A stretch of 64,000 bases of DNA from an uncultured Pseudomonadota bacterium (GTDB taxonomy: Bacteria; Pseudomonadota; Gammaproteobacteria; Burkholderiales; SG8-39): NCBI GenBank assembly GCA_963817785.1, contig CAWFPL010000007.1, positions 338,598 through 402,597 of the forward strand. The letters are read 5' to 3'. Positions within the stretch are counted from its first letter, which is position 1. Each line of letters opens with the position of its first letter. A program made the translations under genes and the position numbers. Positions 11,398 through 59,300 of this stretch are shown here, in pieces. The notes below the pieces were generated by a model that was not told the DNA's origin, ran no database searches, and was given only the letters and a program-made list of their open reading frames with translations.

Positions 11398-11461
11398 GCT
11401 GTTCTTTCCTTAGCAAGCGGCGTGCCTTGCGGCGCCGGCTTCCGTCCACGGCGTCCGAGGG

Positions 11462-38268: not shown

Positions 38269-38589
38269 ATGGAAACAGAGCCGCGTATCAGCCCGCTTCA
38301 CTATTCGCTGATGGAATCGGTGCCCACCTTCGCCGGCGCCGAGAAGAGCTTCGCGATTGTCAACATCTCCTTCACCGCCGCAATGGTCATGGCCGCGCAG
38401 GCCTGGCAGTTCGTGCTGCCTGGGCTCATCGCGCACGCGTTGCTCGCGTGGCTCACGAAGCGCGATCCGCTCATGCGGGTGATCTACTTCCGCTACGTGC
38501 GCCAAGGCGCTCGCTACGACCCCTGGCCGCGCGAACGGCAAAAGCTGAATGCTCGACCGAAGGGGTTTTGCCGGGGAGCGCCATGCTGA
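38269..38589 (+). CDS. virB3: T4SS protein VirB3
   Basis: 106-aa membrane protein. Its stop overlaps the virB4 start. Confidence 0.65.
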   Translation: METEPRISPLHYSLMESVPTFAGAEKSFAIVNISFTAAMVMAAQAWQFVLPGLIAHALLAWLTKRDPLMRVIYFRYVRQGARYDPWPRERQKLNARPKGFCRGAPC

Positions 38590-41105: not shown

Positions 41106-41261
41106 AGTGATTTGACGAAATCATTTTACCGTGGCGCCGACTAAGACCCTGCAACCGACAATGAAGTTAGGGCGAATCGTGGCGCATTGGTGTCGCGTTT
41201 TGCTAAAAGACAGCCTTACCGCGCACGTACGATCAAAGACCCGTCGCAATGGAGGCAGCAC

Positions 41262-42101
41262 ATGGAACGGGCCGCAAAAGCCACTGTCGCCCGAGCGCGC
41301 GCCATGGTAGGAGTGGCCGCACTCGCGTTGGGCCTCCTTTACGTCGTGCCGGCGATCGCCCAATGGGCGGTGTTCGACGCCTCGAACTTCGCCAAAAACG
41401 CGCTCACCGCGGCGAAGTCCGCCGATGCCTACGCCCAGCAGATCGAGCAGTACAAGCTCCAAGGGCTGCAGTATCTGCTGCAGGTGCAGAATCTGCAGAC
41501 CGCCCCCTCGACGGTCTTCGACACCACGTTCGGGCGCGAGGCGCTGCAGATCGCCGGTCCAAACGCCAACGCCGCGGCGCTCGCCCAAGCGGGGGTGCAT
41601 CTGCTGAGCGTGTATTCCAGCACCCAGCAGTTGATGAACCAGGGGAATAGTCTCTATTCACAGGCGGCCGACTGGGGCTGGACACTGCAGAAATTCAGCG
41701 CTGCAAGCGGGATGACGCCGCAACAGATTTTTCAATACGAGCAGAGCCGCGGACAAGCACTGCAGGGCGCGAGCCAACTGCAATATCAACAGGGCGAGCA
41801 GCTCCAGCAGGACCTGCAGGCCTACCAGCAGCAGGCGGACGATGGCCTGCGAACTGCCCAGGGCGCTCAAGGAGCGGTGCAGGCCCTGCAGGGAATCGCG
41901 TTGCAGAACCACACCTTGACGGAGCAGCTCTCAGATTTGTCGGCGGCCGCGGCGACCAGGGACAAAGCCCAGGCCGTGCACGATGCGCAGGAGGCGCAGG
42001 ATAAACAGGAACAGGCCGAGCTCTACAACGAAGCGCAGAAGCGTATGCAGAGCTACTACGACAGCGCCGGAGTGGGTAATGGCATCCAGATCTCGCCGTG
42101 A
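41262..42101 (+). CDS. virB5: VirB5/TrbJ-like minor pilus protein
   Basis: ATG after GGAGG. Signal peptide, then AQWAVFDASNFAKNALTAAK, as in TrbJ. Q-rich helical body. Confidence 0.6.
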   Translation: MERAAKATVARARAMVGVAALALGLLYVVPAIAQWAVFDASNFAKNALTAAKSADAYAQQIEQYKLQGLQYLLQVQNLQTAPSTVFDTTFGREALQIAGPNANAAALAQAGVHLLSVYSSTQQLMNQGNSLYSQAADWGWTLQKFSAASGMTPQQIFQYEQSRGQALQGASQLQYQQGEQLQQDLQAYQQQADDGLRTAQGAQGAVQALQGIALQNHTLTEQLSDLSAAAATRDKAQAVHDAQEAQDKQEQAELYNEAQKRMQSYYDSAGVGNGIQISP

Positions 42102-42120
42102 CGCCTTGGGGTCTCCTGCG

Positions 42121-42378
42121 TTACTGGAGCGGGTATTCCTTGGCGCAGCGCTCACCATCCTTCGCGCCTTGTTGAGCAGACTCGTGTCTTGCGCTAACGG
42201 CCGCGATGCATTTGAGATAGTTCGTGCGCATCGCATCATTTTGGCTTTGGGTAGGCGCATCGCTGCGTGGCGCCTGGCTCGGAACGGCCGCCGCGGCCTT
42301 GCTGTCCGGGGCTTGCTTTCCGCAGCCGGCGCCTAAAAGCGTGACCCCGGCGACAAGGAGGATGGCAGTTGTTCTCAT
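42121..42378 (-). CDS. small lipoprotein (85 aa) on the opposite strand between virB5 and virB6
   Basis: Lipobox LLGAGC following a signal peptide. Confidence 0.55.
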   Translation of the reverse strand: MRTTAILLVAGVTLLGAGCGKQAPDSKAAAAVPSQAPRSDAPTQSQNDAMRTNYLKCIAAVSARHESAQQGAKDGERCAKEYPLQ

Positions 42379-42415
42379 TGATCTCCCCTATGCGTGATTT
42401 AGGAAGGACGGTGAG

Positions 42416-43771
42416 ATGATCCCACAGGCACACGGTTTGGCAAGTCCAGGCCAGGCAGCACAAGGAACTCGCTGCAAGCTTGCAGTTGCGATGGCGCAAA
42501 TCGTCGTGGCCGGGCTTGTGCTGTCGTTGCTTTCCGCGAGCGCGTGGGCGGCGGAAACCGGGACAGCGGCGACCGCAAGCAGCGGATTGCAAGCGGTGGA
42601 AGGGGCGCTGCAAAGCGTACAGGGCAACCTACAGGGTATCGGCTCGCAGCTATTCACTTATTTGGCGTTCATCGCAGTCGTATGGTGGGCTGCGCAACTG
42701 GTGCTGCTCGGCGGCGACTTCACGAATACCTTCGGCGGGTTCATGCGGACCGTGTTTATTTTGGGCTTCACTTACTTCCTCATGCTGCCGTATGCGGCCG
42801 GGCAAACGCCCCTGGTGTGGTTCGTGGACAAGCTCACCACCGCTGTCACGAGGACGCTCACGGGCAATCCCACCGGCGACGTCTCCGGCATTGCGAGCGG
42901 CGCCTTCAGCAATCTGTACGGGATGATCGGGCTGCTCATGCAAGCTCTGATGAAGCCGTTCAGCTCCTCGCACGGATTCCTGGCTGGAATGGAGGCGATC
43001 GGTGTGTTGTTCGCCAACCTCCCCATGGTGCTGTTCCTGGGCCTCGCGATCGTCTTTCTTTGGTTCGCTGGCATCACGCTTTTCGTGATGGCGACGATCG
43101 GGCTGATCATGTTCAAGGTCGCCGATGTGTTCGCGCCGCTCTTCGTCCCGTTTCTGGCCTTGCCCGTCGTCAGCTGGCTTTTCGATGGGTGGCTGCGGTT
43201 TCTGCTTTCGGCTTCGATGTACAAGATCGCCGGGGCCGTGATCCTGCTGCTAGGTAGTGCGGTCATGCAGAGCATGGTGCCGCTCCTGTTGTCGGGTACC
43301 ATGGATTGGGGCCAGGTGACGATAGGCGGCATGGTCGTGGCCGCGCTCGCGTTTTCCCTCCTGTACATCATGCTGCAACTACCAAACATCGCTCACGGCC
43401 TGATCAGCGGTCACGCCACGGTGCAGATGCAACGCATGATGGGCTCGGTCGCTCGCGGTGGACAGCTCGCGGCAGGGGCCACGCTCGCGGCGGCAGGCTC
43501 CGGGCCTAAGCTGATCGAGGCAGGAGTCAGTGCAGCGAAGGGCAGCATTGAAGCGGGCAGGGCCGCCGCCACGTACGCGCGCGGTGCCGTAACTGGGACG
43601 GCCATGGCCTATGCCGTCGGCGGGGTTGGGGGGGTGGCGAAGGCGACGGGCCAGTCCGGGCTGGACGGGACAGGACGCCTTGCAAGCGGCGCGCTGAGCA
43701 GCTATCGCAGGGCGAGCGAGGCGAGCCGGCGCACGGGCCTGAACATCATGTCGCGCGCGCGAAGAAGGTAG
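42416..43771 (+). CDS. virB6: T4SS inner-membrane protein VirB6/TrbL
   Basis: 451 aa with multiple TM helices and a Gly/Ala-rich C-terminus. AGGAAGGA lies 7 nt before the ATG. Confidence 0.75.
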   Translation: MIPQAHGLASPGQAAQGTRCKLAVAMAQIVVAGLVLSLLSASAWAAETGTAATASSGLQAVEGALQSVQGNLQGIGSQLFTYLAFIAVVWWAAQLVLLGGDFTNTFGGFMRTVFILGFTYFLMLPYAAGQTPLVWFVDKLTTAVTRTLTGNPTGDVSGIASGAFSNLYGMIGLLMQALMKPFSSSHGFLAGMEAIGVLFANLPMVLFLGLAIVFLWFAGITLFVMATIGLIMFKVADVFAPLFVPFLALPVVSWLFDGWLRFLLSASMYKIAGAVILLLGSAVMQSMVPLLLSGTMDWGQVTIGGMVVAALAFSLLYIMLQLPNIAHGLISGHATVQMQRMMGSVARGGQLAAGATLAAAGSGPKLIEAGVSAAKGSIEAGRAAATYARGAVTGTAMAYAVGGVGGVAKATGQSGLDGTGRLASGALSSYRRASEASRRTGLNIMSRARRR

Positions 43772-45027: not shown

Positions 45028-47718
45028 GTGTCTTTGCAGACGATGGGGGGAGACATGGGGAGCGCCAGGGAAGACTACGAGCACTTCGTGCGCTGGCTGC
45101 ACCAGCCCGACAGGCGCGTTCGAGAGGACGTTCTGCGCTTTGCCAACATGGTTCTGGCGGACTTCGAGCGTACCGCCGGGACCTTCCGCCAGCACAATAG
45201 CCGTTCAAACCATCTGGCGGTCCTCGCGCGCCGAGTTCTTGCCACGACATCTGCTGCTGTGCCAGAGGCACCGGCGCAGAACCCCGCACTACCTTGGCCT
45301 TGGAAGAGACTGCGGCAGCTCTCGGTTGGTCCGTTCAGGGGATTTCGACGAAACGAGTCGTTCGACCTGCAAAAGCGCGTGCTTCTTATCTACGGGCCGA
45401 ACGGCAGCGGTAAGAGCAGTCTGTGCGAGGCGTTGGAGCACACGCTCCTCGGAACGGTGCAGGAAGCTGAGGCCAGACGCATCGAGGCCCAGCAGTACTT
45501 CGCAAACATCCATGCCCGACGCTTCGTCGCGCCACGGCTCACGGCAACGGATCATGGCGACCAGGAAATCGTCGTAGCGGCGAATCCCGACACTTATCGT
45601 TTCTGCTTCGTCGAAAAGAATCGCATCGAAGCATTTGCGCGGATGGCTGCTCGGCCACCCGCCACGAGGACCGAGCTCATCGCCACGCTGTTTGGCATGG
45701 AGAAATTTAACGACTTTGCGAGTCACTTCAACGAATCGATGGATGCGGCGCTGGTTTGCGACGCCGAGAACGAGCGTGCATTGACCAGCCGCCGGCAAGT
45801 TCTCGCCCGCGACCAGCAAACCGTCGCCGCCGAGCAAGCGTCCTTGATGAAGCTCAACCAGGGGGAAGCGACATTCGCCGAGGGCTGCCGGCCAGGCACG
45901 TCCTATGTCGATCTCAAGGCGTGGATTGGTACTCCGGAAGCGCCCGGACGCCTGCAGGAGCTTGACGGCATCCTGAACGTCGTTCCGCCGGCGGTCGTGG
46001 GGATCACACGCGAGGGATTGGCCAATCGCTATACGGCAGCGGACGGCGCAGCGGACCGCTTGGGAACAGCGACCAGACAGCTCGAGGCAAGAAGCCACCA
46101 GGTTTCCTTCAAGGACCTTTACACCGCAGTGCTCGCCTTGCAAGCGGCCCATGAAGACCGATGCCCTGCGTGCGACACCCCGCTGAATGCCGTTACCACT
46201 GATCCGTACCAGAAGGCAACGGCGGGTCTACGGGATCTCCGCGATCTTGCCGCACTGCAGGAAGAGGCCGCGCGTTGTCGCCAACAGCTGGATGAGGCAT
46301 CACGATCCTTGCGTGTGGACCTCAATATCGCGTTCGCTTCGATGACTCAGAACGAGCAGAACACGACGCCCGTGGGGCGCTATATCGCCGGACTGGATCA
46401 AGCACCACGCGGTGATCGCTGGTGGCAGGACGTCTACGCTCCAATAAGAGGTGACGGCCGGGAAGTGGAGCCGGCGTCGCTGGAGCAAGTGCTGGAAATC
46501 GCGTCGCGCATCGAGCTACGGGATCAGGAGATTCAACGTCAGGTTCAGGAACGTCAGGCACTCGTCCAAGAACGGGATACGCTGCTATTGTGGCAGCGTC
46601 AGATTCTGGAGCGGGACCTCGCCCGCAAATCCGCTGTGGATGAGATCGCCGCGGCCCGAGGACGTATCGCGCGATTTGACGAAGAAAATTCGGGTCTTAT
46701 TCAGCGGGCTGCCCAAGAACGTCAGAACATCGAGCGGGATCGCCCCATTAAGGTGGCGTACGACCAGTTTCTACCGATGCTGCGGTGCTTTAGGAACGAA
46801 CTGCCCGGCTTGCTGATGGAGGGCCTCAACGATCTCGCGAGAGACCTTTACAACGAATTCAACCAGCACGATCCCGAAGCGGACAAATTCGCCTCGCTGC
46901 ACCTTCCCCTAACGGGCGAACAGCGCATCGATATCGCATTTCGTGGCGACCCACAGCGTCGCCTCGACGCCCTGGTGATTCTGAGTGAGGGACATATTCG
47001 ATGTCTCGGACTTGCAATCCTGATGGCGAAGGCGATCAGCACTGGCTGCTCGCTGATCATATTCGACGATGCGATCAACGCCATCGACCATGACCATCGG
47101 AGCGGTATTCGGCAGACTATTTTCGAGAGCGATCGTTTTCGGGAGATTCAGCTCGTCGTCACCTGCCACAGCGGTGAGTTCATCAAGGACATCCACAATC
47201 ATTTGCCGCAGTACAGCCGAAACGATTGGACGGAGTATGTCATCAGCCACCACGCCGGCGACTATCATCCACAGGTGGTCTCGAACACAATGAGCCGAAA
47301 CTACGTGGAGCGGGCGCGAGTCGCCAAGAACGCATTGGACGACCGCGAGGCGCTTTCCTGCGGTCGCAGAGCACTGGAAATGCTATCCAACAAGGTCTGG
47401 AAATGGCTCGCGTCCTTCGGCCGCGGCGAACTGCGATTGGAACTGAGAGGTCCGGGAGCCGAGCCGTCGCTGCGAGATCTCTGCGAAGCGCTGCGTACAA
47501 GATTGAACGACAATACCTTCGTGCATCCGGAGAAGGATTCGATTGTCGATGCCCTGAATCTCATACTGGGAATTCCGGCACAAAACCTTATTTGGACCTA
47601 TCTCAACAAGGGCACGCACGAACGCGCCGATCGCGACGATTTCGACGCAGCGCATGTCGAAAGCGTAATTGCCACACTTGAACATCTCAACGACCTTCGG
47701 CTACGTCGCGCTGCATAG
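45028..47718 (+). CDS. Rad50/SbcC-like ABC (SMC-type) ATPase with CxxC hook and extra C-terminal domain
   Basis: Walker A GPNGSGKS, long coiled-coil insert containing RCPACD, signature-like LSEGH, Walker B LIIFDDAINAID, H-loop VVTCHS. Alternative ATG starts at 45043 and 45055. Confidence 0.7.
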   Translation: MSLQTMGGDMGSAREDYEHFVRWLHQPDRRVREDVLRFANMVLADFERTAGTFRQHNSRSNHLAVLARRVLATTSAAVPEAPAQNPALPWPWKRLRQLSVGPFRGFRRNESFDLQKRVLLIYGPNGSGKSSLCEALEHTLLGTVQEAEARRIEAQQYFANIHARRFVAPRLTATDHGDQEIVVAANPDTYRFCFVEKNRIEAFARMAARPPATRTELIATLFGMEKFNDFASHFNESMDAALVCDAENERALTSRRQVLARDQQTVAAEQASLMKLNQGEATFAEGCRPGTSYVDLKAWIGTPEAPGRLQELDGILNVVPPAVVGITREGLANRYTAADGAADRLGTATRQLEARSHQVSFKDLYTAVLALQAAHEDRCPACDTPLNAVTTDPYQKATAGLRDLRDLAALQEEAARCRQQLDEASRSLRVDLNIAFASMTQNEQNTTPVGRYIAGLDQAPRGDRWWQDVYAPIRGDGREVEPASLEQVLEIASRIELRDQEIQRQVQERQALVQERDTLLLWQRQILERDLARKSAVDEIAAARGRIARFDEENSGLIQRAAQERQNIERDRPIKVAYDQFLPMLRCFRNELPGLLMEGLNDLARDLYNEFNQHDPEADKFASLHLPLTGEQRIDIAFRGDPQRRLDALVILSEGHIRCLGLAILMAKAISTGCSLIIFDDAINAIDHDHRSGIRQTIFESDRFREIQLVVTCHSGEFIKDIHNHLPQYSRNDWTEYVISHHAGDYHPQVVSNTMSRNYVERARVAKNALDDREALSCGRRALEMLSNKVWKWLASFGRGELRLELRGPGAEPSLRDLCEALRTRLNDNTFVHPEKDSIVDALNLILGIPAQNLIWTYLNKGTHERADRDDFDAAHVESVIATLEHLNDLRLRRAA

Positions 47719-48179: not shown

Positions 48180-49480
48180 AACAGCGTCCTAGTCGTCGAC
48201 ATCGCTAAATATGGATCGCCCCTTCGGCGCTGCAGCGACCTTTGCTGGTGAAATGTTCGACCAAAAACCAACATCTTCCTCGGGGGCTTTCTTATTGGAA
48301 ACGTCTGCTATGGCGTCGTCGATCTGGCCACTTAGTAAATCCAGCATGTTTTGAACAGTCGCGTCGTCCGAAAACGCTTCTTGCAATTGCTCAACAAAGT
48401 TCCGGACCTGGTCAAATTGGTTTGGTATATCAAACTCTGGATCAGCTTCATCTGCAAGTTCCGATATGCGGTCCGAAACAACGCTGTCGAGTGTGGCCAC
48501 CAGCTGGACTCCTAGTCGTATAAGTTGAGTGGGCCGAAGGAGCGCCAGGATGTCGTCGTCACTCAAGAAGGAGGCGTCAAGGTCGTTAAGCGCGGCCCGT
48601 TCGAGTTTGTCTGCCATTTCAAAGCGAATCTCCTCCGGCAGTCGGTGCAGATTGTGAACGCGTGCGAGAAAGCGCAGCCGCCGGTCACTGGCGATTCGCC
48701 AAAAGTGTTGGTGTTGAGCCTCACGTCGAAACAAAATTGAGTCTGCACCCAAAATGGCGGTGACCACTGTGTCTGATGCGCGGTTTGTTAAGAACTCAAG
48801 CAGAGGTCCATTGATTTCAGGCACGTCGGGCACCCCAATCAAACGACCAACTAAGTGCTCAAATGCCGACAGCGGAATAACAACAGCATCGCGAATCGAT
48901 TCGGCACCTTCGCATACGGCTTCGGCAAGCAATGTCTCGAGCTTCGCCCCCTGAACATATAGTTCCACTAGGTCGGAACGCGCGCTTAGCATGCTACTGA
49001 TAGCATCGGTGAACGTGGGGTGCACGAAGCCCCAGATCTGCTGAGAATCGTCTTGGCGAACCGATACAAATGACCCCTTCAACTGCGGTAGCGCATCAGC
49101 AATCGCGCGCGCAGTGACGCCGTACTTTTCGGCGACCAGGCTCGTCGAATCGCTAGCGAGGTCATGCGCCGGCAGCCTTCCTTGGCGAAGGAAGACAAGG
49201 GTCATGGCCGCTTGGTGCGGCTCGTCCAACTCTCGGATCGTTTGAACCAAGAACTCTGCCGGTTCTGCGACAAACTTGATCAAGTCATCAGGAAAGCTTT
49301 TCAGCGCTTTGGTATAGGTGCGATCGCCCAAGCGACGTGCAATCTCCGGCAGCAGCCGCGAATTTCCGGCTAATGCAGGTAGGTGGGCCTTTATCCGGCG
49401 CTTCCAAGCAGCTGTTTGATTCCCCGCCTTCAAATGGTTATAGATGATCTGCTCGCGTTCTTCTGGGCTTAATGAACCTA

Positions 49481-50583
49481 TTGAGTATTTCCTAACCTCG
49501 TGACAACCGAATTGTTCCTCATGCGTTACTCGGGTGTTGGCATAACATCGGAGTTTGCGCATGAAGACGAAGAACAAAATCGATGCCGGGGCGAAGCGCC
49601 GGGTGCGGGCGGCGCGGCTGCTTCAGGCCGGTCACGCTCCCGCGCAGGTGGCTGCTATGGTGGGCGCGCCGCGCCAGACGGTATACCGCTGGAAGGGCGT
49701 GCTGGAGTCCGAGGGAATCGATGCGCTTCGGAGCGTGAGCAAGGGCGGGCGTCCCGCCCGACTCGGTGCCGAGGAACTGTCCAAGCTGCAAGTAGCTTTG
49801 CTCGAAGGCCCGACGGCGCACGGCTTTGGCACGTCGCTCTGGACGATCAAGCGGGTGCGCGTGTTTATCGAGCGGCGCTTCGGCGTTCACTACAGCGAGG
49901 TTCATGTCTGGCGGTTGCTCGGGCAGTTGGGCTTCTCCAGCCAGAAGCCCGATCGGCGTGCGCTGGAGCGCGATGATGTGGCCATCGAGCATTGGAAGCG
50001 GCACACCTGGCCCGGGCTTAAAAAAAAGCCCGCCGCGAGGACCGGCTGATCGTCTTCATCGACGAATCGGGCCTGTCGCAGCGCCCCACACGGGTGCGCA
50101 CCTGGGCGGTGAGAGGCGAGACTCCGGTGCTCCAGTTCTGCTTCAACTGGGACCACGTCTCGGTGATCGCCGGAATGCACTATCGCGGCGTGTGCTTTCG
50201 GCTTCACGAAGGCTCGGTCAAGAAAGAGCAGGTCCTCGAGTTCCTCAAGGCGCTCAAAGCCCACTATCGCCGCCGGCTTCTCATCTTGTGGGATGGAGGC
50301 AGACCTCACCGCAGTCGCTTGGTGCGCGACTACGTGGACTCGACCGACGGCGACATCCAGCTCGAGTTCCTGCCCGGCTACGCCCCGGAACTCAACCCCG
50401 TGGAGTACCTCTGGGCTTGGCTCAAGCGCCATGCGCTGGCGAACTTCTGCCCCGAGACGTTGAGCGAACTCCAGCACACCGCTCGCGGCAAGCTGAAATC
50501 CGCCCAACGGCGCTCCGCCATCATCGCCTCCTGCTGGGAACAGGCTCAACTGTTCTAATGTCATGCGGTTAGGTAATACTCAA
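49481..50583 (+). mobile_element. IS630-family insertion sequence, copy 1 (1103 bp, TA target duplication)
   Basis: Imperfect terminal inverted repeats TTGAGTATTTCCTAACC... / ...GGTTAGGTAATACTCAA, flanked by TA on both sides. Confidence 0.9.
49561..50558 (+). CDS. IS630-family transposase, two frames joined by a -1 shift at an A8 run
   Basis: The HTH part ends just after CTTAAAAAAAAG. The DDE part (LIVFIDESG...LPGYAPELNPVEYLW) continues in the -1 frame. Confidence 0.85.
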
Positions 50584-52004
50584 TAGATCGACTACGGCCC
50601 TGTCATCTGCTAGAACGGGCAAATTCCTCGTACCCAGTTTCGGTTTCGCGCCATGCCAGATGTGGCTCCGAGAGGTCAGAATGAATCGGTTTCCGGACTC
50701 AATCGCCGCCTTCACCTTTGGCATCGCGTTGATCCAACAATCGACAAAATCCGATCTGAGTTGATTTGGTCCGAACGCATCGTCGACCCAGTAGAGTCGA
50801 TTCTTCTCGTGCGGATTCCATCGACTGGCTAGTTCGAGGGGGCCGTCACACTTCAGACATTGATGGTGCTCGCCGTCGATTGCAGTCGTTGACAGGATCG
50901 CGGCGAGCATGGACTTTCCAGTCGCGGGTGCCCCCAGAAGCAGAACGATCTTGTGTTCTGCCAACATACGGACGGCGGTGCGATGGGCGGCAGTTGGTAC
51001 GTAGACACGCAGGCCTGGTTGCAGGTGTCCCAGAAGGGCTTGCGTTTGCTGCGTGCATCTTTCATCAAGGATCGTCGATAAGTCCCCCAAGCCATATACA
51101 CATGGCACCAAGGCTCGCAATCGAGCGCTGCCTCGGATCTGTAGCGTCACCCACTCTCGACCGAGTACATGGGGCTCACGAACGCCCGCTTCGACAAGTT
51201 TGTCTCGGATTTGCGCAGCGACAGGGGCATCGACTCCCAAGCTCGTAATGAGATAGTACGTCTCTGCTCGTCTCGCGGCCACCAACTCGCGAACCGTAGC
51301 CAACTCTGCATCAATAGCAGTTGCACGCAGCCGCTGGTCGGCCTTGCCGCTAAACTTGCACTGAACGGTGGCTTCAGAGCCCGTTTGGTCAGAGCCTGCC
51401 TTTCGCAATTGGAAGACGGCGTCTTGCCCACCGTCCTGGGCCTCGCGGTAGATCGAGACTGTTGTACCCAATGTCTCCGCGCATACCTGCGCGCAGAGAT
51501 CTTGAAATGCCTTCCACCCAAGCGTGTGAATGGCTAGATCAACGTTGGCGCCTTGTACCTGCACTTCAGCCTCCGGCCTTCATGCTGGAATGGATGGACT
51601 AGAAATCTGCGTGTTTGCAATCTGGGACATAGGTCGCGGTACGCTCCGTGGGCAGGCAAACACAGCGCCGTTCAGCTAAATGGCCCTTCCAAGTCATTTA
51701 ATCACCGAACAGCCGAAACGCCCAGACCCTCTCGACCTGAATGTTCGCAGCCTGCAGCGCCAGGCGCACGGACTCGGCATCGGGCGCCCGGTAAAGGCTG
51801 ATCATTCGCCGGCGGTCGGACGACAGGTAGCGCCATAAGTGTGCCAAGGGCAATCAGCATTTTTCAGAGTGTCGCAATTTGCCTCCCCTGATCCCCGTAA
51901 AATCGCAAATGGCCGAATCAGCGGGGCGGATCGCCCAGTCACCGCCAACTGCGGCATTCTACTTTTCAGTGGCTCCTTTCTGGAAACGCGGCAGGCTACT
52001 TCGG

Positions 52005-52032
52005 GTCGCTATGCGGAGCTCCGCATAGCGAC
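52005..52032. repeat. perfect 28-bp palindrome
   Basis: GTCGCTATGCGGAG|CTCCGCATAGCGAC, anchored on track ORF 51839..52120. Confidence 0.85.
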
Positions 52033-52301
52033 CATTAGCGGCTCTTCAATGGATCCAAGCTTTAGAAAGCTTGACTCGCCTGAAAGTCAAAGCGGCGACA
52101 CCCCTCCCACCAGACCATAAAGTCAATTATCGAAACCCGGAGCGGTGGGTGCGAGGACGGTCTTGCTCTGCATGCCCCTCCATTTGCCAGGTGCGATGCC
52201 TTTCACTGGCTGCGGTTGCGACCAGAAGTCTGGTAGGGCCAGCTGCCGACGCCGCTTCCGGCTGTAGGCTGTCTCAGCACATGTGAAGCGACCAATGAAT
52301 C

Positions 52302-53132
52302 CTATTTTCGGTTTGGGCGGCGAACCACGCTCGTCCCATTCTCGTTGTAGCGCACCGGAAACGCATCAGGGTCATAGCGCGCGTCTAGCATCGAGGCCTC
52401 GGGCAATATCAGCGTCAGCACCTCACTCCCCATGGCCACGGAATGTTCGCGCACCTCGTATTCGCCGCCGTCGGCGTTCGTAAACCATGCGTCGGCTCCA
52501 GACTTTCGAAGCCCCGTTTCCTGCTTGCCGGAGATGAGCAGGTCGTACGCAAAGCTATCTTCGTCGAGTTCTTGCTTGAGATACCACCTGCGAGGGACGT
52601 CCGGCGTCCGTAAAAACCACCGCAGCCCACTGTCGTCGTAGCTGGTCAGGATGGCCGGCACGGTATTAACGTCGATAAGTCGAATCGCAGCACTCAAGAG
52701 TCCGCAGTCAAAATCTGCTGCGAGGAGAGCGAGGTCGTTTAGCGAAGGCGTCTTGATTTCCTTAATGCGCGGCTTAAACAGATGACCAGGCATTAGCAAG
52801 TGGGCCGCATAGTGATCCGCTTCGCGCTCCTTGGTTCGGTCTGCTGCAGCCAAGTTGACGGACACATCGTCGACGCGGCATCGGAAAGACTGTCCCCGAT
52901 GATGATGCCAGTGGCCGAGCTCGTGGCCGATGGAAAACCGCTGACGCGTCGGGCGGATGCCCTTCTGGATGGTCGCGATCGCGCGACCCCCTATGCCAAC
53001 GAGGGTCGCTTCGCACCCTTGCAGGCGCTCGTAGCGCACTTCCACGCCAGCCTCGAAGGCGATCGCTTCGACATCGATCTCCTTGGGTGCAGTGATGCCG
53101 AGCTCGGCGATGCATTCCTCGGCCGGGTGCAT
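52302..53132 (-). CDS. ImmA/IrrE-family zinc metallopeptidase with about 130-aa C-terminal domain
   Basis: HEXXH motif HELGHW with downstream E...HLLMP. Third gene of a tightly packed operon. Confidence 0.75.
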   Translation of the reverse strand: MHPAEECIAELGITAPKEIDVEAIAFEAGVEVRYERLQGCEATLVGIGGRAIATIQKGIRPTRQRFSIGHELGHWHHHRGQSFRCRVDDVSVNLAAADRTKEREADHYAAHLLMPGHLFKPRIKEIKTPSLNDLALLAADFDCGLLSAAIRLIDVNTVPAILTSYDDSGLRWFLRTPDVPRRWYLKQELDEDSFAYDLLISGKQETGLRKSGADAWFTNADGGEYEVREHSVAMGSEVLTLILPEASMLDARYDPDAFPVRYNENGTSVVRRPNRK

Positions 53133-53135
53133 GGG

Positions 53136-53537
53136 CTACTGAGGCTCGTCCGTGGGGGAGATTCCGAGCTCTCTCAACTGCCGATAGATGCGAAGCACAT
53201 CGTCGTCGGACATTTCCTTGAGGTCCCTCGCCGCTAGAGTGAATCGCGGATTGTTAACCGCTTCCGCGATGACGCGCCGAGCCTCGCCGACGTCGATAGG
53301 CTCCTCGACAGCCGGGACCATTGTACGGCGATCCAATGCCCGCCGGGCGGCCTGCAATCGGCGCTTTCCAGCCTCCTGCCGCGCGGCCTGCACAATTTCG
53401 GCAAACCGCGCGCGCTCGGGGGCTCCCGTCTGCGGAGCGCCAAGGATATCTTCCTCCGGCTGTTGCTGCAGGCTCTCGAGATAACCATCGATGAACGCCT
53501 GAAGTTGTTGTACGGCGTTCCCCTTGCTGTCGCTCAT
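53136..53537 (-). CDS. hypothetical 133-aa protein between the sigma-like and ImmA genes
   Basis: ATG overlaps the upstream stop (ATGA). Its own stop lies 3 nt before the ImmA start. No HTH recognised. Confidence 0.55.
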   Translation of the reverse strand: MSDSKGNAVQQLQAFIDGYLESLQQQPEEDILGAPQTGAPERARFAEIVQAARQEAGKRRLQAARRALDRRTMVPAVEEPIDVGEARRVIAEAVNNPRFTLAARDLKEMSDDDVLRIYRQLRELGISPTDEPQ

Positions 53538-54142
53538 TTTTGCCTCCAAGGTCTCGCCAACTCCTTGCACTTTCGGTGCATCCGCTTTCGGATCGTGTCG
53601 AGCTCAGACTCGGTCACGCGCAGCGATTCGCGAAGCTCATCGCCCCTCAGACCCTTGGCGAGCTCCTCGATCAGCACCGAAACGTCTACGTCGTCCTGAA
53701 ATAGAGCTTCGATCTTGCCTAAGGCCTGCCGGGCGGCGGCCAAGCGCTCGGGGTCGCGCAGCTCGACTGCTTCGGGCCCGCGCTCCTCTTCCTCCTCGGC
53801 GTCTTCCGGGTCGGAAAAAACGTCGATGCGTGACCGTCGGCTCGCCTTCGCAGCCGCGTTTGCGATGCTGCTCATCGCCTTCCATAAGAATGGCACGATG
53901 GCCAGGCCGCGGGGGCACCTGCGCTGGAGGGCAAAGGCGCGCACCAAGGCCTCCTGCAAGAGGTCCTCCGGAGATTCGAACCCATTGATGTAACAGAACA
54001 ATTCCGCCCCGCGCTGGAGGATGGCTTCCTCCTTCGCGGTGAGGGCAGCGATAGCCGCCTCAACCTCAGCACGCGACAGAGCATCTACAGCGTCCGGCGC
54101 ATCCAATTCCTGCAAGGTCGCCTCCTCTGAGACATGCTCCAT
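53534..54142 (-). CDS. ECF-type sigma-70-like protein
   Basis: Start at M98 of the track ORF. PEDLLQEALVRAF resembles region 2. LRGDELRESLRVTESELDTIRKRMHRKCKEL resembles the region 4 HTH. Confidence 0.5.
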   Translation of the reverse strand: MEHVSEEATLQELDAPDAVDALSRAEVEAAIAALTAKEEAILQRGAELFCYINGFESPEDLLQEALVRAFALQRRCPRGLAIVPFLWKAMSSIANAAAKASRRSRIDVFSDPEDAEEEEERGPEAVELRDPERLAAARQALGKIEALFQDDVDVSVLIEELAKGLRGDELRESLRVTESELDTIRKRMHRKCKELARPWRQK

Positions 54143-54444
54143 CGGCGCAGTTTGCGGACACGCCGAAAAAAATTCTTTGCATGTCCGGAGATGCCGAGCA
54201 TGGAGCCTTTCTATATGTAGGCGGCGGCGGCGGCCGGCTCGGGGATCTACAGCGGGCTGGAGCAATCGCGGGCTACGGAGCGGAAATGTAAGGGCATAAC
54301 CGATGGACGCACAAGCCGAGCAATTGCTTCTGGAGATTGGCATACAGCTCGACGCCGGGATATTTCCGAAAGTCAAAAACGGGGGATTCGTGATGCCCGG
54401 CGAGCCCTCCCGACCTCTACCTAATCGGGGCAAGGAGAAGTCAG

Positions 54445-55220
54445 ATGGAGAAGGACAAGAGCGAGAAGGACCGCGGGAAACAGGAGAATCCCGGCCATGG
54501 CGAGGAGATCCCAGGCCGCGGCCAGGGCAACTCGGGCGACCACGGCCGTCCGGACCACTCTGGGCGGCCGGTAAAGCCGCACCGGTCGTCAGCGCGCTGG
54601 ATCAGTACGAGCAGGAAGTAAGTGCGCTGCAAGCGATTTACCCAGACGCGCGGTCTTGGAGAACGCAACGGGGGGTATGGCTTGCCGTTAGAGCAAGGCT
54701 GCTCCCCGGGCTACGCGAGCACGCGCTCTTCCTCATGGGCGTGCCCGCCGTCACCGGCGTGGTCCGAAGCTGGGCGTTCTGGGTAGATCCTATCTTTCTT
54801 CCCGTTTGGATTGGTCCCCGTCACACAAACTTCGGCGACGGCTCCATCTGCGCCTTCGAGCCGGCCGATGGCACATGGAGCTTCGGGGATTCGCTCATCG
54901 AGCTCGTGGACATGTACGCGGTCTGGGCTTTGAGGCATCTGCACCTGCGGCATACCGGGCGGTGGCCGGGCCCCCAGGCCGTACATCGTCCCTACGAACG
55001 GCTCCTCGAAATAGGATCCGACGAGCGGTGTGGTTGCCCGACACCCCGGGGAACATACTCACGATGCTGCCGCAGTCGTGACCTCGGCCGCGACCGCATC
55101 GCTGACGCGGTGGACTTCCTGATCTTTTCGCGCTGGCAGCTCCGTCGTCCGCTGCCGGTCGTGGAGCAATTTGTCTCCACCGGCTTTCGAAACATCGAAA
55201 TGCTCGAAAGACTCATCTGA
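54445..55220 (+). CDS. UBC/E2-like protein with C-terminal SEC-C-like Cys motif; frame changes near 54575-54595 as written
   Basis: ATG at 54445 follows AGGAGA, and that frame has GC-rich third positions but stops at 54621. The E2-like body (RHTNFGDGSICAFEPADGTWS; CGCPTPRGTYSRCC) is in the frame of track ORF 54303..55220. Confidence 0.45.
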
Positions 55221-55499
55221 CGCCGGCATCGCAGTGGCGTAAGGGACCGCTTGCGGTTGCGTACTCAGTCGCGGCTAATCCAGCGTTGACGGCCGCGGAA
55301 GCGCACCCTCTTAACGATGTCGTCGGCGTCCCCCAAAAACCAGCTCCAGATGATGTGCGTGTTGCGGCCTTTCGCCTCGCGCGCGTTAGTATCCATAATT
55401 CGCATTATCGACGCTGAGCTCTCCGGCCGCACGACCGCTTGGGGTCGCATTCCGACCGCTGTACGCTCGCCTTGAGAGCTGGACGCAGGAGATCGAGTA

Positions 55500-56390
55500 G
55501 TGGGTAGCATTTTCGTCGTCGGAGCGGGCCTTTCCAAGACATGTGGGATAGCGACGGATTTGGAGATGCTCGATCAACTCAATCCGTTGCTACGGCGTAC
55601 GCCGTCAAAGGAAGATATCGCGTTCCGAGTCGCGCCGGAGAGGTGGAAAACGACGATCGAATCTCTGCGTGAGCAACTGTTCCATTATCGCGCAGGAGTC
55701 GGGTTCGAGTTGTTTATGTCAACGCTCTGGGCGGCGAAGTATTCGGCTTACTATCTAGAGCTCGACAGGAATATCTTTCGCGAAGAGGAGCGGGAGCTCC
55801 AGCGCGCTCTCAAGAGATACCTAAAGGACTGCGTGCGCCGAATTGATTGGGGTGAGTCGGGCGGGAGGACGATTCTAGAGCTTGTGCGGTCGATTAACTG
55901 GAATACAGACTTCGTAATAACGTTCAATTATGACCAACTGCTCGAGGCCGCTGCGGCTCGGTCGGGTCTTCGAACGGAAAATCGCATCCTCCATCTCCAC
56001 GGCGCAATGAACGAGCGGACGCTGGCTTGGCCGATCTATGCGAAGTTCGCCTATCGAACGACGAAGACTGCATTGGGTAAGCGCTGGAAGCGAGCTTTCC
56101 AGATACTTCGCGGACAGAGGGAAATCGATCGAGTGGATCGCCTTATCTTTATCGGCTATTCCATGCCGTCGTCAGATCTCGAAGCGTTGACCCTGTTTCT
56201 CTACACTGATTGGTACAACAGTCGCGACACGCACAACTATTCGGTAATGGTGGTAAACCCGAGCGACGTGCAGAACAACTATGCGTTTCTCCGAAAGGTC
56301 CCGGAGTACCGGCAACAGACTCTTGCCGATTGGTTGAGGAGTTCAAAGACACCTCCTGCGGGGCAACCGAATTTAGATCAAGCTACGTAA
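55500..56390 (+). CDS. stand-alone SIR2-like (SIR2_2 family) protein
   Basis: GTG start 8 nt after AGGAG. Motifs VVGAGLS, ITFNYDQLLE, LHLHG, LIFIGYSMPSSD. Confidence 0.7.
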   Translation: MGSIFVVGAGLSKTCGIATDLEMLDQLNPLLRRTPSKEDIAFRVAPERWKTTIESLREQLFHYRAGVGFELFMSTLWAAKYSAYYLELDRNIFREEERELQRALKRYLKDCVRRIDWGESGGRTILELVRSINWNTDFVITFNYDQLLEAAAARSGLRTENRILHLHGAMNERTLAWPIYAKFAYRTTKTALGKRWKRAFQILRGQREIDRVDRLIFIGYSMPSSDLEALTLFLYTDWYNSRDTHNYSVMVVNPSDVQNNYAFLRKVPEYRQQTLADWLRSSKTPPAGQPNLDQAT

Positions 56391-56558
56391 CGAAAGCGCT
56401 AGTAGTCAGTACTACCGGTCGGGGATGGCCGCTTCGGGTCTGGTGCCGTCCGTCGCCGCTGACGAACGCGGCCATTCACCCAGCGTAGCAAGTCAACGTC
56501 TGCAACCTGCGCGACACCAGTCATTCAACTGAGCCAACGCCACTGGCAGCAACGGCCG

Positions 56559-58168
56559 GATTCTGTTGAAAAACCTCGCCGGTGATCGAATCTTTGGTCC
56601 CATGAAGTGTCCGATCTTCCAGTGCATTGAGGGAGCACTTCAAGATGATGGGACAGCAATCGGGCGGGCAAGAGCGACTGTTCTATTCGTTCAATCTTGA
56701 AGATCACGTTCCGGCGAAGCACCTGCTGCGCGGCATCGACCGATGCCTCGATCTGAGCGGGCTGCGCGAACACCTGGCCAAGTATTACAGCCACACGGGT
56801 CGGCCCTCGGTCGATCCGGAACTGATGGTGCGGATGCTGATCATCGGCTACAGCTACGGCATTCGTTCGGAGCGCCGCCTGTGCGAGGAGGTGCATCTGA
56901 ACCTCGCGTATCGCTGGTTCTGTCGTCTTGGTCTGGAGGATGCCGTACCGGAGCATTCCACCTTCTCCAAGAACCGGCATGGGCGATTTCGCGAGAGCGG
57001 CGCGTTTCGCTGGGTGTTTGAGGAGGTGGTGCGTTGCTGCATGGCGGCGGGCCTGGTCAAGGCAGAGGGCTTTGCGGTGGACGCGAGTCTGATTGCTGCC
57101 AACGCAAGCCATCAGCACAGCGTTGCGCCCGGTGAGCATTGCGATTGGAACAATCCCCAGATCGACACGCGCGCGATGCGCGAGTATCTGGCGGCCCTGG
57201 ATGATGAGGAGCTTGCCGCGGCAGCGTCGCGCAAGCTATCGCTCAGCGACCCGCACGCGCGCTGGACGGCGGCGACCGGAGGCATCGCCTTCTTCGCCTA
57301 CTCGACCAACTATCTGATCGACGTGGCTCATGGGGTGATCCTCGACGTGCAAGCGACGCCTGCTCACCGTACGGCGGAAGTCGAATCCACCAAGACCATG
57401 ATCGAGCGGGTCGAAGAGCACTTCGATCTCAAACCGCAGCGGCTCATCGCGGACATGGCCTATGGCTCGGCGCCGATGTTGGGCTGGATGGTCGAACAGA
57501 AGGCGATCGAGCCGCATGTGCCGGTGTGGGACAAGACCGAGCGCAAGGATGGCACCCTAGAGCGCGACGCCTTTCAATGGGACGAAGAAGCCGACGAATA
57601 CCGCTGCCCGCAGGGCTACGCCTTGCGCCGCCAATGGCGTCCCTTCAAGAACTCGCGCACGCACATCACCCAAGGCGAAACCGTCATCTATCGCTCAAGT
57701 AAGCGCAGTTGCACCGTCTGTCCGATGAAACCCCGGTGCTGCCCGAATACGCCCTTTCGCAAGATTGCCCGCAGCACCCACGAGTCGGCGCGTGACGTTG
57801 CTCGACGCATCGCCACCACGGCGGCGTATCAACGATCGCGCTGCGAGCGCAAGAAGGTCGAGATGCTCTTCGCGCACCTTAAGTCCATCCTCAAGCTCGA
57901 TCGCCTACGGCTTCGCGGACTCAGTGGCGCCACGGATGAATTCACCCTTGCCGCCACCGCCCAGAATTTGCGGCGTCTGGCCAAGCTCGTCTCACCGGCA
58001 CCACCGCTTCACGGGATAGGTGCGCCCGCATGAGGTGAAACCCTCCGAATTAGCCGACAAGCAAGGCTTCAAAGCCCAGTGCCGGGCACCAAAGCCCATC
58101 ACCTCGCGTCATTACTGCCAATATCCAAGCGCCAGTTCAGCCGCAACGTCGAGTTCTTCAACAGAATC
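56559..58168 (+). mobile_element. IS1182-family (IS5-like) insertion sequence
   Basis: Terminal inverted repeats GATTCTGTTGAAaAAC / GTTcTTCAACAGAATC enclose a single transposase gene. Confidence 0.8.
56645..58033 (+). CDS. IS1182-family transposase
   Basis: InsH-type N-terminus GRPSVDPELMVRMLIIGYSYGIRSERRLCEEV...AYRWFC and DDE-type C-terminus. Confidence 0.85.
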   Translation: MMGQQSGGQERLFYSFNLEDHVPAKHLLRGIDRCLDLSGLREHLAKYYSHTGRPSVDPELMVRMLIIGYSYGIRSERRLCEEVHLNLAYRWFCRLGLEDAVPEHSTFSKNRHGRFRESGAFRWVFEEVVRCCMAAGLVKAEGFAVDASLIAANASHQHSVAPGEHCDWNNPQIDTRAMREYLAALDDEELAAAASRKLSLSDPHARWTAATGGIAFFAYSTNYLIDVAHGVILDVQATPAHRTAEVESTKTMIERVEEHFDLKPQRLIADMAYGSAPMLGWMVEQKAIEPHVPVWDKTERKDGTLERDAFQWDEEADEYRCPQGYALRRQWRPFKNSRTHITQGETVIYRSSKRSCTVCPMKPRCCPNTPFRKIARSTHESARDVARRIATTAAYQRSRCERKKVEMLFAHLKSILKLDRLRLRGLSGATDEFTLAATAQNLRRLAKLVSPAPPLHGIGAPA

Positions 58169-58197: not shown

Positions 58198-59300
58198 TTG
58201 AGTATTTCCTAACCTCGTGACAACCGAATTGTTCCTCATGCGTTACTCGGGTGTTGGCATAACATCGGAGTTTGCGCATGAAGACGAAGAACAAAATCGA
58301 TGCCGGGGCGAAGCGCCGGGTGCGGGCGGCGCGGCTGCTTCAGGCCGGTCACGCTCCCGCGCGGGTGGCTGCTATGGTGGGCGCGCCGCGCCAGACGGTA
58401 TACCGCTGGAAGGGCGTGCTGGAGTCCGAGGGAATCGATGCGCTTCGGAGCGTGAGCAAGGGCGGGCGTCCCGCCCGACTCGGTGCCGAGGAACTGTCCA
58501 AGCTGCAAGTAGCTTTGCTCGAAGGCCCGACGGCGCACGGCTTTGGCACGTCGCTCTGGACGATCAAGCGGGTGCGCGTGTTTATCGAGCGGCGCTTCGG
58601 CGTTCACTACAGCGAGGTTCATGTCTGGCGGTTGCTCGGGCAGTTGGGCTTCTCCAGCCAGAAGCCCGATCGGCGTGCGCTGGAGCGCGATGATGTGGCC
58701 ATCGAGCATTGGAAGCGGCACACCTGGCCTGGGCTTAAAAAAAAGCCCGCCGCGAGGACCGGCTAATCGTCTTCATCGACGAATCGGGCCTGTCGCAGCG
58801 CCCCACGCGGGTGCGCACCTGGGCGGTGAGAGGCGAGACTCCGGTGCTCCAGTTCTGCTTCAACTGGGACCACGTCTCGGTGATCGCCGGAATGCACTAT
58901 CGCGGCGTGTGCTTTCGGCTTCACGAAGGCTCGGTCAAGAAAGAGCAGGTCCTCGAGTTCCTCAAGGCGCTCAAAGCCCACTATCGCCGCCGGCTTCTCA
59001 TCTTGTGGGATGGAGGCAGACCTCACCGCAGTCGCTTGGTGCGCGACTACGTGGACTCGACCGACGGCGACATCCAGCTCGAGTTCCTGCCCGGCTACGC
59101 CCCGGAACTCAACCCCGTGGAGTACCTCTGGGCTTGGCTCAAGCGCCATGCGCTGGCGAACTTCTGCCCCGAGACGTTGAGCGAACTCCAGCACACCGCT
59201 CGCGGCAAGCTGAAATCCGCCCAACGGCGCTCCGCCATCATCGCCTCCTGCTGGGAACAGGCTCAACTGTTCTAATGTCATGCGGTTAGGTAATACTCAA
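58198..59300 (+). mobile_element. IS630-family insertion sequence, copy 2 (same orientation, TA flanks)
   Basis: Collinear with copy 1. I saw four mismatches. It lies 29 bp from the IS1182 end. Confidence 0.9.
58278..59275 (+). CDS. IS630-family transposase (copy 2), -1 shift at an A8 run
   Basis: Same two-frame organisation as copy 1. Confidence 0.85.

Follow-up and report, generated by a model that had tools for sequence, protein, structure and literature searches.

The 64-kb stretch of contig CAWFPL010000007.1 analysed here (the whole of which we call the window) carries three tightly packed minus-strand genes, A, B and C, at positions 52302-54142. We read them as a regulatory cassette of three parts, of the CapH+CapP type but with sigma/anti-sigma control in place of repression by a helix-turn-helix (HTH) protein. 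The product of A would be a dedicated, very divergent sigma factor resembling those of the extracytoplasmic function (ECF) group, which is sequestered by B; once the CapP protease encoded by C is turned on by single-stranded DNA (ssDNA), it would cleave B, and the freed A would drive two promoters. Based on sequence evidence and on analogy with characterised systems, we put the probability of this reading at slightly below 0.6. A protease-gated switch of a sigma/anti-sigma-like kind had been suggested in a first-pass annotation of this DNA, and it appears to be the best-supported interpretation, in view of the conserved synteny of the triad, an invariant motif of sigma region 2.2 in A, a mirrored DNA motif that co-varies with A and a CapH-like tail on B.

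Gene order and the CapP protease

The list of open reading frames and the sequence of the window place the three genes in the order A-B-C. As originally read, A has 202 aa (53534-54142, minus strand, from an ATG at 54142); B has 133 aa (53136-53537, minus strand) and C has 276 aa (52302-53132, minus strand). The stop codon of A and the start codon of B share an ATGA at 53537-53534 (sequence context aaaATGAgc), and the ATG of C comes 3 nt (ccc) after the TAG stop codon of B, so that the B/C junction reads cagTAGcccATG. Three packed genes with an ATGA overlap and a 3-nt gap are what the first-pass annotation had described, and the sequence agrees with its coordinates. The ATGA overlap of A and B was present in 15 of the 17 non-redundant related loci (individual loci are labelled L001 and so on below), and at the B/C junction the genes overlapped by 4 nt or lay 2-5 nt apart, with two exceptions among the 17. 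Because both features recur across related loci, the tight packing is not due to chance.

The start of A requires a correction. The first-pass annotation extended the operon to 54142, and although the reading frames stand, the true start of A is probably not the ATG at 54142 but a TTG at 54115, which would give a protein of 193 aa (53534-54115, minus strand). Most A homologues are 193-195 aa long and start at the position aligned to residue 10 of the window protein, the TTG sits 5 nt after a GAGGAGG (54127-54121), and the ATG at 54142 abuts a conserved, promoter-like non-coding block with GGAGC at 54136-54140. It is these three observations together that favour the TTG.

The order A-B-C was found in every related locus with enough flanking sequence, that is, in ~25 non-redundant loci from three clades, between which the identity of A drops to ~25-30%. 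All five plasmids that we examined carried the triad (pDE of Cereibacter sphaeroides 2.4.1, and plasmids of Polaromonas CJ2, Pseudoalteromonas KG3, Rhodoferax and Bradyrhizobium), and it was also found around the three distant members of the B family that were sampled, where the upstream genes belonged to the A family (E 1e-35 to 1e-12). A small number of loci are degenerate: L010 from Duganella lacks C, and L045 has a truncated A. That the ATGA coupling is near-universal and the gene order unchanged in all sampled loci suggests that A and B are stoichiometric partners. In our model the two proteins are made 1:1, and B, which is translationally coupled to A, would be a soluble anti-sigma factor of a new kind.

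Sequence comparison identifies C as a full-length CapP, a zinc metallopeptidase of the ImmA/IrrE type. C matched the PADLOC capP model from end to end (residues 2-242 to positions 7-239 of 242; E 8.9e-57), and further matches were obtained to Pfam Peptidase_M78 (E 1.5e-11) and to the CapP of Thauera in PDB entry 7t5t (E 6.9e-9). These matches bear out the earlier claim that the last gene encodes an ImmA/IrrE metallopeptidase with a HEXXH motif, and assign it to the CapP kind. The motif itself, HELGH, occupies residues 70-74 (52911-52925, minus strand), and a GAF-like sensor region is present at the C-terminus. The stretch SFRCRVDD of C, with Cys85, aligns to SFQCSDAD of 7t5t, which holds the Cys113 switch of that protein, so that Cys85 is a candidate cysteine switch. 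An internal cysteine-switch loop occurs in about one third of the CapPs associated with CBASS, the cyclic-oligonucleotide-based anti-phage signalling system (Lau et al., 2022, bioRxiv 10.1101/2022.04.27.489752). In the proposed mechanism this switch would keep CapP off, and ssDNA arising from DNA damage or phage infection would turn it on, by analogy with characterised CapP.

In L001-L003, public gene calls give CapP as a fragment of 163 aa (~9322-9813 / 11322-11813). A tblastn search found a full-length match of 272 aa with 76-77% identity, and the short version probably reflects a gene-calling or start-codon problem, not decay.

The sigma-like protein and its proposed partner

In the numbering of the 202-aa version, A consists of a sigma2-like domain (residues ~20-105), an acidic disordered linker (106-128) and a sigma4-like domain (~130-195). 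The AlphaFold2 (AF2) model likewise shows two helical domains joined by a disordered acidic linker. The predicted architecture is thus sigma2 plus sigma4, with neither sigma1.1 nor sigma3, as in the ECF sigma factors (group 4). Among NCBIfam models, A gave weak but collinear matches to ECF families, namely TIGR02983 (E 2e-5) and TIGR02937 (residues 56-194 to positions 27-163 of 165). A profile built from the A family matched SigH of M. tuberculosis (5zx2/6jcy; E 5e-5 to 3e-4), again collinearly over both sigma2 and sigma4, and SigH was still the top match of a broader A profile (E 7e-4). This is further supported by a Foldseek search of the PDB with the model of A, in which the top five matches were sigma-factor chains or models, four of them ECF sigma factors in complexes with RNA polymerase (RNAP), with probabilities of 0.75-0.98.

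The best-conserved stretch of the A family across clades is DLLQEA, which aligns with DLLQET of SigH in sigma region 2.2. Region 2.2 is the helix by which sigma-70 proteins bind the RNAP core. Hence, A is most likely a divergent ECF-like sigma factor, for which binding of the RNAP core and initiation of transcription are predicted. The first-pass annotation had called this gene sigma-like, and profile searches agree through the SigH match over both domains and the DLLQEA motif, at scores that lie below the curated cut-offs.

The 133-aa product of B had been described as a protein without a recognisable HTH, and we came to the same result. B has no Pfam family at E<=1 and no NCBIfam family, and 19 of its 19 homologues are without a precomputed Pfam domain. 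Its AF2 model is all-helical (helices at residues 8-25, 35-72, 83-94 and 111-123), with two long helices, and contains no HTH bundle; no other DNA-binding fold was detected in the model or by Pfam. In contrast, the canonical CapH found beside canonical capP on plasmids of Thauera and E. coli is a 107-aa XRE-HTH protein, and 120 of the 120 canonical CapH homologues listed carry XRE HTH domains of Pfam (PF01381, usually together with PF12844 and PF13560). A Foldseek search with the model of B gave no significant match, with nothing below E 2. When PDB sequences were searched with profiles of B and of its C-terminal domain, neither CapH nor an anti-sigma factor was retrieved.

What the first-pass annotation missed is that B appears to have kept a CapH-like C-terminal module. 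B combines an N-terminal two-helix module (residues 8-72) with a C-terminal module (~80-125) that resembles CapH. The PADLOC capH model was matched by 19 of 19 B homologues, with a best E-value in the family of 8.5e-7; in the window protein the match covers the C-terminal part only (residues 68-125 to model positions 58-99 of 103). Profile-profile comparison (hhalign) of B or its C-terminal part with 112 canonical CapH sequences was not significant (E 0.23-0.39). The non-significant alignment at E 0.23 sets the AA-R104 junction of B opposite the FF-R83 junction of E. coli CapH. We propose that B is both an anti-sigma factor and the substrate of CapP, in which case the N-terminal helical hairpin would hold A, and the CapH-like tail would be recognised by the protease.

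Within this tail lies the motif T-L-A-A-R (residues 100-104; 53226-53240, minus strand), which is invariant in the A2 alignment and in distant clades. In the form [T/S][L/M/I/V]AAR it was found in 164 of 167 representatives of the B family, ~31 residues from the C-terminus. CapP cuts CapH between F82 and R83, with R83 as the P1' residue, and the substitution R83A blocks cleavage (Lau et al., 2022, bioRxiv 10.1101/2022.04.27.489752). For B, we propose that active CapP would cut most likely before the invariant arginine of T-L-A-A-R, between Ala103 and Arg104, and would leave a C-terminal LAA. Conceivably, such an end, similar to those of ssrA and RseA, might be degraded by housekeeping proteases. 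The end of the ssrA tag (LAA) and that of RseA(1-108) (VAA) both recruit ClpXP.

When clustered at 50% identity, the B family numbers 649 clusters (E<=1e-3), and of its 150 best matches most span nearly the whole protein (125-150 aa). Among the proteins retrieved by the search with B, P0228 (406 aa) shows a B-type protein naturally fused to CapP. P0167 (5013 aa) was discarded as a repeat-protein false positive. In P0270 (212 aa) a sigma4-like segment is joined to the C-terminal half of a B-type protein; this may represent a genuine fusion, or else a frameshift where the two genes meet in the ATGA.

An alternative explanation might be that CapP acts on A instead of B, for instance by cutting the RRSRID/acidic linker, while B serves as a chaperone or adaptor. 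The first-pass annotation had raised cleavage of the sigma-like protein as a possibility, and the linker is disordered and conserved within clade 1. Across clades, however, its sequence is not conserved. The CapH-like tail and the near-universal xAAR motif are found on B and not on A, and it is B, not A, that occurs fused to CapP. We therefore consider this explanation very improbable.

Another possibility is a two-layer control, in which B is a divergent CapH that represses through a DNA-binding N-terminus of unrecognised type, formed by its basic long helix, and A is an independent sigma factor for the cargo promoter that makes no contact with B. In line with this idea, Lau et al. listed the middle gene of such systems as capH, and helix 35-72 of B is rich in arginine and lysine (GKRRLxxARRAL); the sigma-like identity of A is compatible with it as well. 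Yet Pfam and the AF2 model reveal neither an HTH nor any other DNA-binding fold in B, and the near-universal ATGA coupling and constant gene order suggest that A and B are stoichiometric partners. Furthermore, no separate operator-like block that is conserved in all clades stands out beyond the two arms of the intergenic element described below. Two-layer control with independent A and B is, in our judgement, quite unlikely.

A mirrored element between cassette and cargo

The intergenic region between A and the divergently transcribed cargo gene is 187 bp long. Upstream of A it contains a mirror-symmetric element that is common to all clades. In the window, the pattern TGTCCG-N13-17-GGAGC has exactly two matches in the whole 64 kb, and these lie back to back in this region, facing outward. 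The arm facing A (54136-54160, minus strand) consists of TGTCCG (54160-54155), a 14-nt spacer and GGAGC(A) (54140-54135). It corresponds to a conserved block in the alignment of clade 1, and ends ~40 nt before the start of A in most loci. The arm facing the cargo (54182-54206, plus strand) consists of TGTCCG (54182-54187), a 14-nt spacer and GGAGC (54202-54206), and lies ~95 nt upstream of the E2-like gene; the two arms mirror each other in every clade. The centre between the arms (54161-54181) is A/T-rich, as is the centre in clades 1 and 2, and is possibly a shared UP-like element.

The geometry of the element differs within and between the arms. Within an arm, the second block starts at position 21-23 in nearly all non-redundant loci of the three clades, which corresponds to an internal spacing of 14-16 nt. 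The distance between the arms, measured from GGACA to TGTCC, ranges over 21-41 bp among loci. The motif also changes with the clade of the sigma-like protein: the first and second blocks are TGTCCG and GGAGC(A/C)TTT in clade 1, CGTCCA and GAGTC(A/C)TA in clade 2, and TGTCCG and CCGCATA in clade 3, and both blocks change in both arms together. A sigma-70 promoter scan gave no match in the intergenic region between A and the cargo in the window.

Two independent back-to-back promoters that are read by a private sigma factor would be expected to show such a geometry, whereas a rigid dimeric operator would not. We favour the two-promoter reading because the spacing is fixed within the arms and variable between them, and because the motif co-varies with the sigma clade. 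In the proposed mechanism, free A together with RNAP would fire both promoters, each with TGTCCG as the -35 element, a 14-nt spacer and GGAGCA as a -10-like element. One promoter would drive A-B-C, which would amount to positive feedback with a built-in reset, and the other would drive the divergent cargo, that is, the E2-like gene and perhaps the SIR2-like gene behind it.

The same element might also be explained by a split repressor. Here, A would be the DNA-binding subunit, through the HTH of its sigma4-like domain, of an A2B2 complex held together by the CapH-like tail of B as a dimerisation module. Bound to the inverted repeat GGACA..TGTCC, this complex would repress both divergent promoters, and cleavage of B by CapP would dissolve the dimer and de-repress them, just as happens with CapH, except that the HTH would be provided in trans. 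That the DNA element is an inverted repeat suits this explanation, as does the role of the C-terminal domain of CapH as a dimerisation/tetramerisation module needed for DNA binding; in addition, A scores below all curated sigma thresholds and all characterised Cap regulators are repressors. However, the centre-to-centre distance of the half-sites varies over 21-41 bp, while the spacing within the arms is fixed at a promoter-like length. Each arm is bipartite, with both blocks co-varying with the sigma clade, and the intergenic region offers no sigma-70 promoter to repress. Moreover, the most conserved motif of A is DLLQEA, of the RNAP-core-binding region 2.2, which a mere DNA binder would not need. 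Accordingly, we regard a split repressor as unlikely.

Several observations weigh against release of a sigma factor as the basis of the switch. A does not reach any of the curated sigma cut-offs: it scores 14.9 bits for TIGR02937, where 42.9 would be needed, and 24.5 for TIGR02983, where the cut-off is 141.6. No Pfam sigma family was found for the window protein, and Sigma70_r2 appeared only below threshold in 5 of 25 relatives, with a best E-value of 0.019. The Foldseek E-values of A are weak (at least 7e-3), and its TM scores are low owing to the orientation of the domains. As for B, the AF2 model of the monomer is moderately confident, with a predicted local distance difference test score (pLDDT) of 68.5, and no similarity to any known anti-sigma domain, such as RskA/zf-HC2 with HxxxCxxC, was found in Pfam, NCBIfam, PDB sequences or structure comparison. 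The link between its tail and canonical CapH comes from one PADLOC model, against E 0.23 in our own profile-profile comparison. Finally, a mirror-symmetric DNA element also resembles the operator of a repressor, the orientation of the putative promoters (outward or inward) is not readable from sequence alone, and the motif is unlike the classic ECF consensus GGAAC/CGTC.

The leader of the cargo gene (54210-54302, plus strand) contains a further conserved block, GCTACG(G/A)(A/G)GCGGAAATGTAA(G/A)GG, just before the start of the E2-like gene in the window and at the equivalent positions in L004, L005 and L001. In L001, a related CTACGAAGAAATGGAG precedes the gene for the ubiquitin-like protein (Ubl) of the Bub operon. 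The block may be the context of a ribosome-binding site, a second regulatory site or an RNA element. A search of 51500-57000 against Rfam detected no RNA family, and hence the cargo leader is not a known riboswitch.

Defence cargo and mobile setting

The first-pass annotation also missed the divergent defence gene as the probable regulated target. In the window this is an E2-like gene (54303-55220, plus strand, 305 aa), which matched the PADLOC models of CBASS E2 proteins (E 7.6e-5). Homologues with 61-64% identity occupy the same divergent position in L004 (6898-7827), L005/L015 (L015 4877-5803) and L017 (3139-4065). These E2/UBC-like proteins share an invariant PRHTNFxDGSICA(F/Y)EP (HxN...Cys), a Pro/Arg-rich linker and a CGC...CC motif resembling a metal site. 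No E1 or Ubl gene lies beside the E2-like gene, which is the only conserved cargo in several loci.

Elsewhere, the cassette faces other genes. A Type II Bub operon (Multi_ubiq, DUF6791/ThiF and DUF6527) is divergent from it in L001-3, Multi_ubiq with Prok-E2_E in L032, CBASS with SMODS and patatin in L009 (Aureimonas sp. Leaf454), CBASS with a SAVED effector in pDE and KG3, a Cap2-like E2-E1-JAB in L027, and a Bil E1 in L045. DUF3892, DUF2188 and proteins without an assigned function take this position in other loci. On the basis of these gene neighbourhoods, the cassette behaves like a portable unit of the "controller of adjacent pathway" kind. We rejected the idea of a toxin-antitoxin pair or of a stand-alone protease, because the genes opposite the cassette are in every case variable defence cargo and C is a complete CapP. 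The cassette of pDE (L038; NZ_CP030276.1, 59899-61684) consists of the sigma-like gene, B and CapP, and the CBASS operon that lies divergent to it has an effector with a SAVED domain; all three cassette genes are annotated as "hypothetical" or ImmA/IrrE.

Directly downstream of the E2-like gene lies a SIR2_2/AbiH-like gene (55500-56390, plus strand, 296 aa; Pfam SIR2_2 E 7.6e-6, AbiH E 4.8e-6; PADLOC SIR2 E 1.5e-6). It is not conserved beside the cassette in other loci, and the motif search of the 64-kb window found no further promoter motif upstream of it. Possibly, the gene is part of the regulated cargo. In L004, an unrelated SIR2_2 protein of 877 aa occupies the same place, after remnants of insertion sequences (IS).

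The wider surroundings place the cassette in the accessory or cargo region of a conjugative element, with IS elements and defence-like genes around it, as judged from gene content. Type IV secretion system (T4SS) genes, among them those for a VirB4/TrbE-like protein of 885 aa and a TrbL/VirB6-like protein of 451 aa, and a gene for an SMC_N/AAA ATPase of 896 aa were found at 38448-43771 and 45028-47718, with the T4SS at 38-44 kb. The GC content falls from ~0.70 to 0.57-0.60 over 44-58 kb. A defence-like NTPase gene (48189-51564, minus strand) is split by an IS630-family insertion (49555-50558) into an N-terminal part with an Mrr_cat nuclease and an nSTAND3 P-loop domain (50569-51564) and a C-terminal part (48189-49577). 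A second, near-identical IS630-family copy lies at 58272-59275, beside an IS5/IS1182-type transposase gene (56627-58033).

Known systems and significance

The arrangement was not recognised as a described one in the first-pass annotation, a statement that must be qualified. Lau et al. (2022, EMBO J; bioRxiv 10.1101/2022.04.27.489752; figures here are from the preprint and its Table S1) report 24 CBASS-associated capH+capP pairs as "encoded alongside a predicted sigma70-family sigma factor", without an analysis of them. Table S1 marks Aureimonas sp. Leaf454 as "Sigma-70 present" and lists its middle gene as capH (bioRxiv 10.1101/2022.04.27.489752). Because this entry corresponds to L009, the cassette of the window belongs to the sigma-70 subgroup of Lau et al. 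Our literature search found no paper that analyses the sigma-associated CapH+CapP variant, and the later Bub and CapK/CapS papers, in the portions available, treat CapH+CapP as a repressor pair and are silent on this variant (PMC13373217 for CapK+CapS). The existence of the variant is thus on record, while its mechanism is not explained in the literature.

Like CapH+CapP, the cassette has a peptidase of the CapP type in which a candidate cysteine switch and a C-terminal GAF-like domain are present; directly upstream lies a small partner gene whose product probably ends in a CapH-like module, and a defence operon, for instance CBASS or Bub, is divergent to the cassette. Nevertheless, B lacks the HTH that defines CapH, and for this reason the module is not to be classed with the ordinary CapH+CapP pairs. 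Where canonical CapH is a 107-aa XRE-HTH repressor, B has 133 aa and another N-terminal module, made of two helices; a third, ECF-like sigma gene is obligatory; a conserved xLAAR motif would replace the FF-R site; and the predicted logic is activation by release of a sigma factor, not de-repression.

Similarly, DdrO/IrrE of Deinococcus and ImmR/ImmA of ICEBs1 in Bacillus rely on an ImmA/IrrE-family peptidase that cleaves a small regulator upon DNA damage. DdrO is cut before an arginine, between L106 and R107. In contrast to the cassette, the substrates in these systems are HTH repressors that bind DNA directly, and no sigma factor is involved.

In its proposed logic the cassette comes close to the sigmaE/RseA system (DegS/RseP, then ClpXP). 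As in that system, an ECF-type sigma factor would be co-transcribed with its proposed inhibitor, and in our model the sigma operon is autoregulated here as well; the signal would pass through proteolysis of the inhibitor, and cleavage may expose a C-terminal Ala-Ala degron. Unlike sigmaE/RseA, the present system would be cytoplasmic and soluble, with no membrane-spanning anti-sigma factor, and B is without homology to anti-sigma domains. Its protease is of the ImmA/IrrE family and a presumed sensor of ssDNA, and the predicted regulon consists of a single defence operon, next to the cassette on a mobile element.

A dedicated ECF sigma factor with its anti-sigma factor also controls adjacent anti-phage systems, a CBASS-CRISPR island, in the DdvS/DdvA module of Myxococcus xanthus (PMC11506125). 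However, DdvA is a transmembrane protein and that module has no ImmA/IrrE protease (PMC11506125). Our comparison detected no sequence relation of DdvS/DdvA to A or B. CapW/BrxR and CapK+CapS resemble the cassette as modular units upstream of diverse defence operons, including Bub, that respond to ssDNA or DNA damage, but their proteins are unrelated (WYL in the former, a GHKL kinase with a STAS-winged-HTH protein in the latter) and both are repressors (PMC13373217). CapK and CapS only resemble anti-sigma kinases and their antagonists, and control no sigma factor (PMC13373217).

The characterised DNA-damage-responsive regulators of anti-phage operons (CapW/BrxR, CapH+CapP and CapK+CapS) are all repressors. 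Possible, though short of probable, is the bolder proposal that the cassette is the first "Cap" module with positive control. A cytoplasmic, ssDNA-sensing ImmA/IrrE protease would then destroy a new class of soluble anti-sigma factor with a CapH-derived tail, and the cut in xLAAR, after LAA, would unmask an LAA degron, freeing a private divergent ECF sigma factor to act on a compact bidirectional promoter. Conjugative elements and plasmids would thereby carry a portable, orthogonal switch from damage to transcription.

The module is compact and self-contained (three genes and ~70 bp of promoter), and could serve as an orthogonal, damage-inducible expression switch. Plasmid pDE of the model organism Cereibacter sphaeroides 2.4.1 offers a tractable native example. 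If our reading is true, it would account for the 24 systems that Lau et al. marked as "Sigma-70 present", and would define a new class of soluble anti-sigma factors as well as a new ECF group, very divergent and labelled "hypothetical" by annotation pipelines. It would also mean that the same sensor protease has been put to a new use, the release of a dedicated sigma factor, which would join the ImmA/IrrE systems to the regulated-proteolysis logic of ECF sigma factors.

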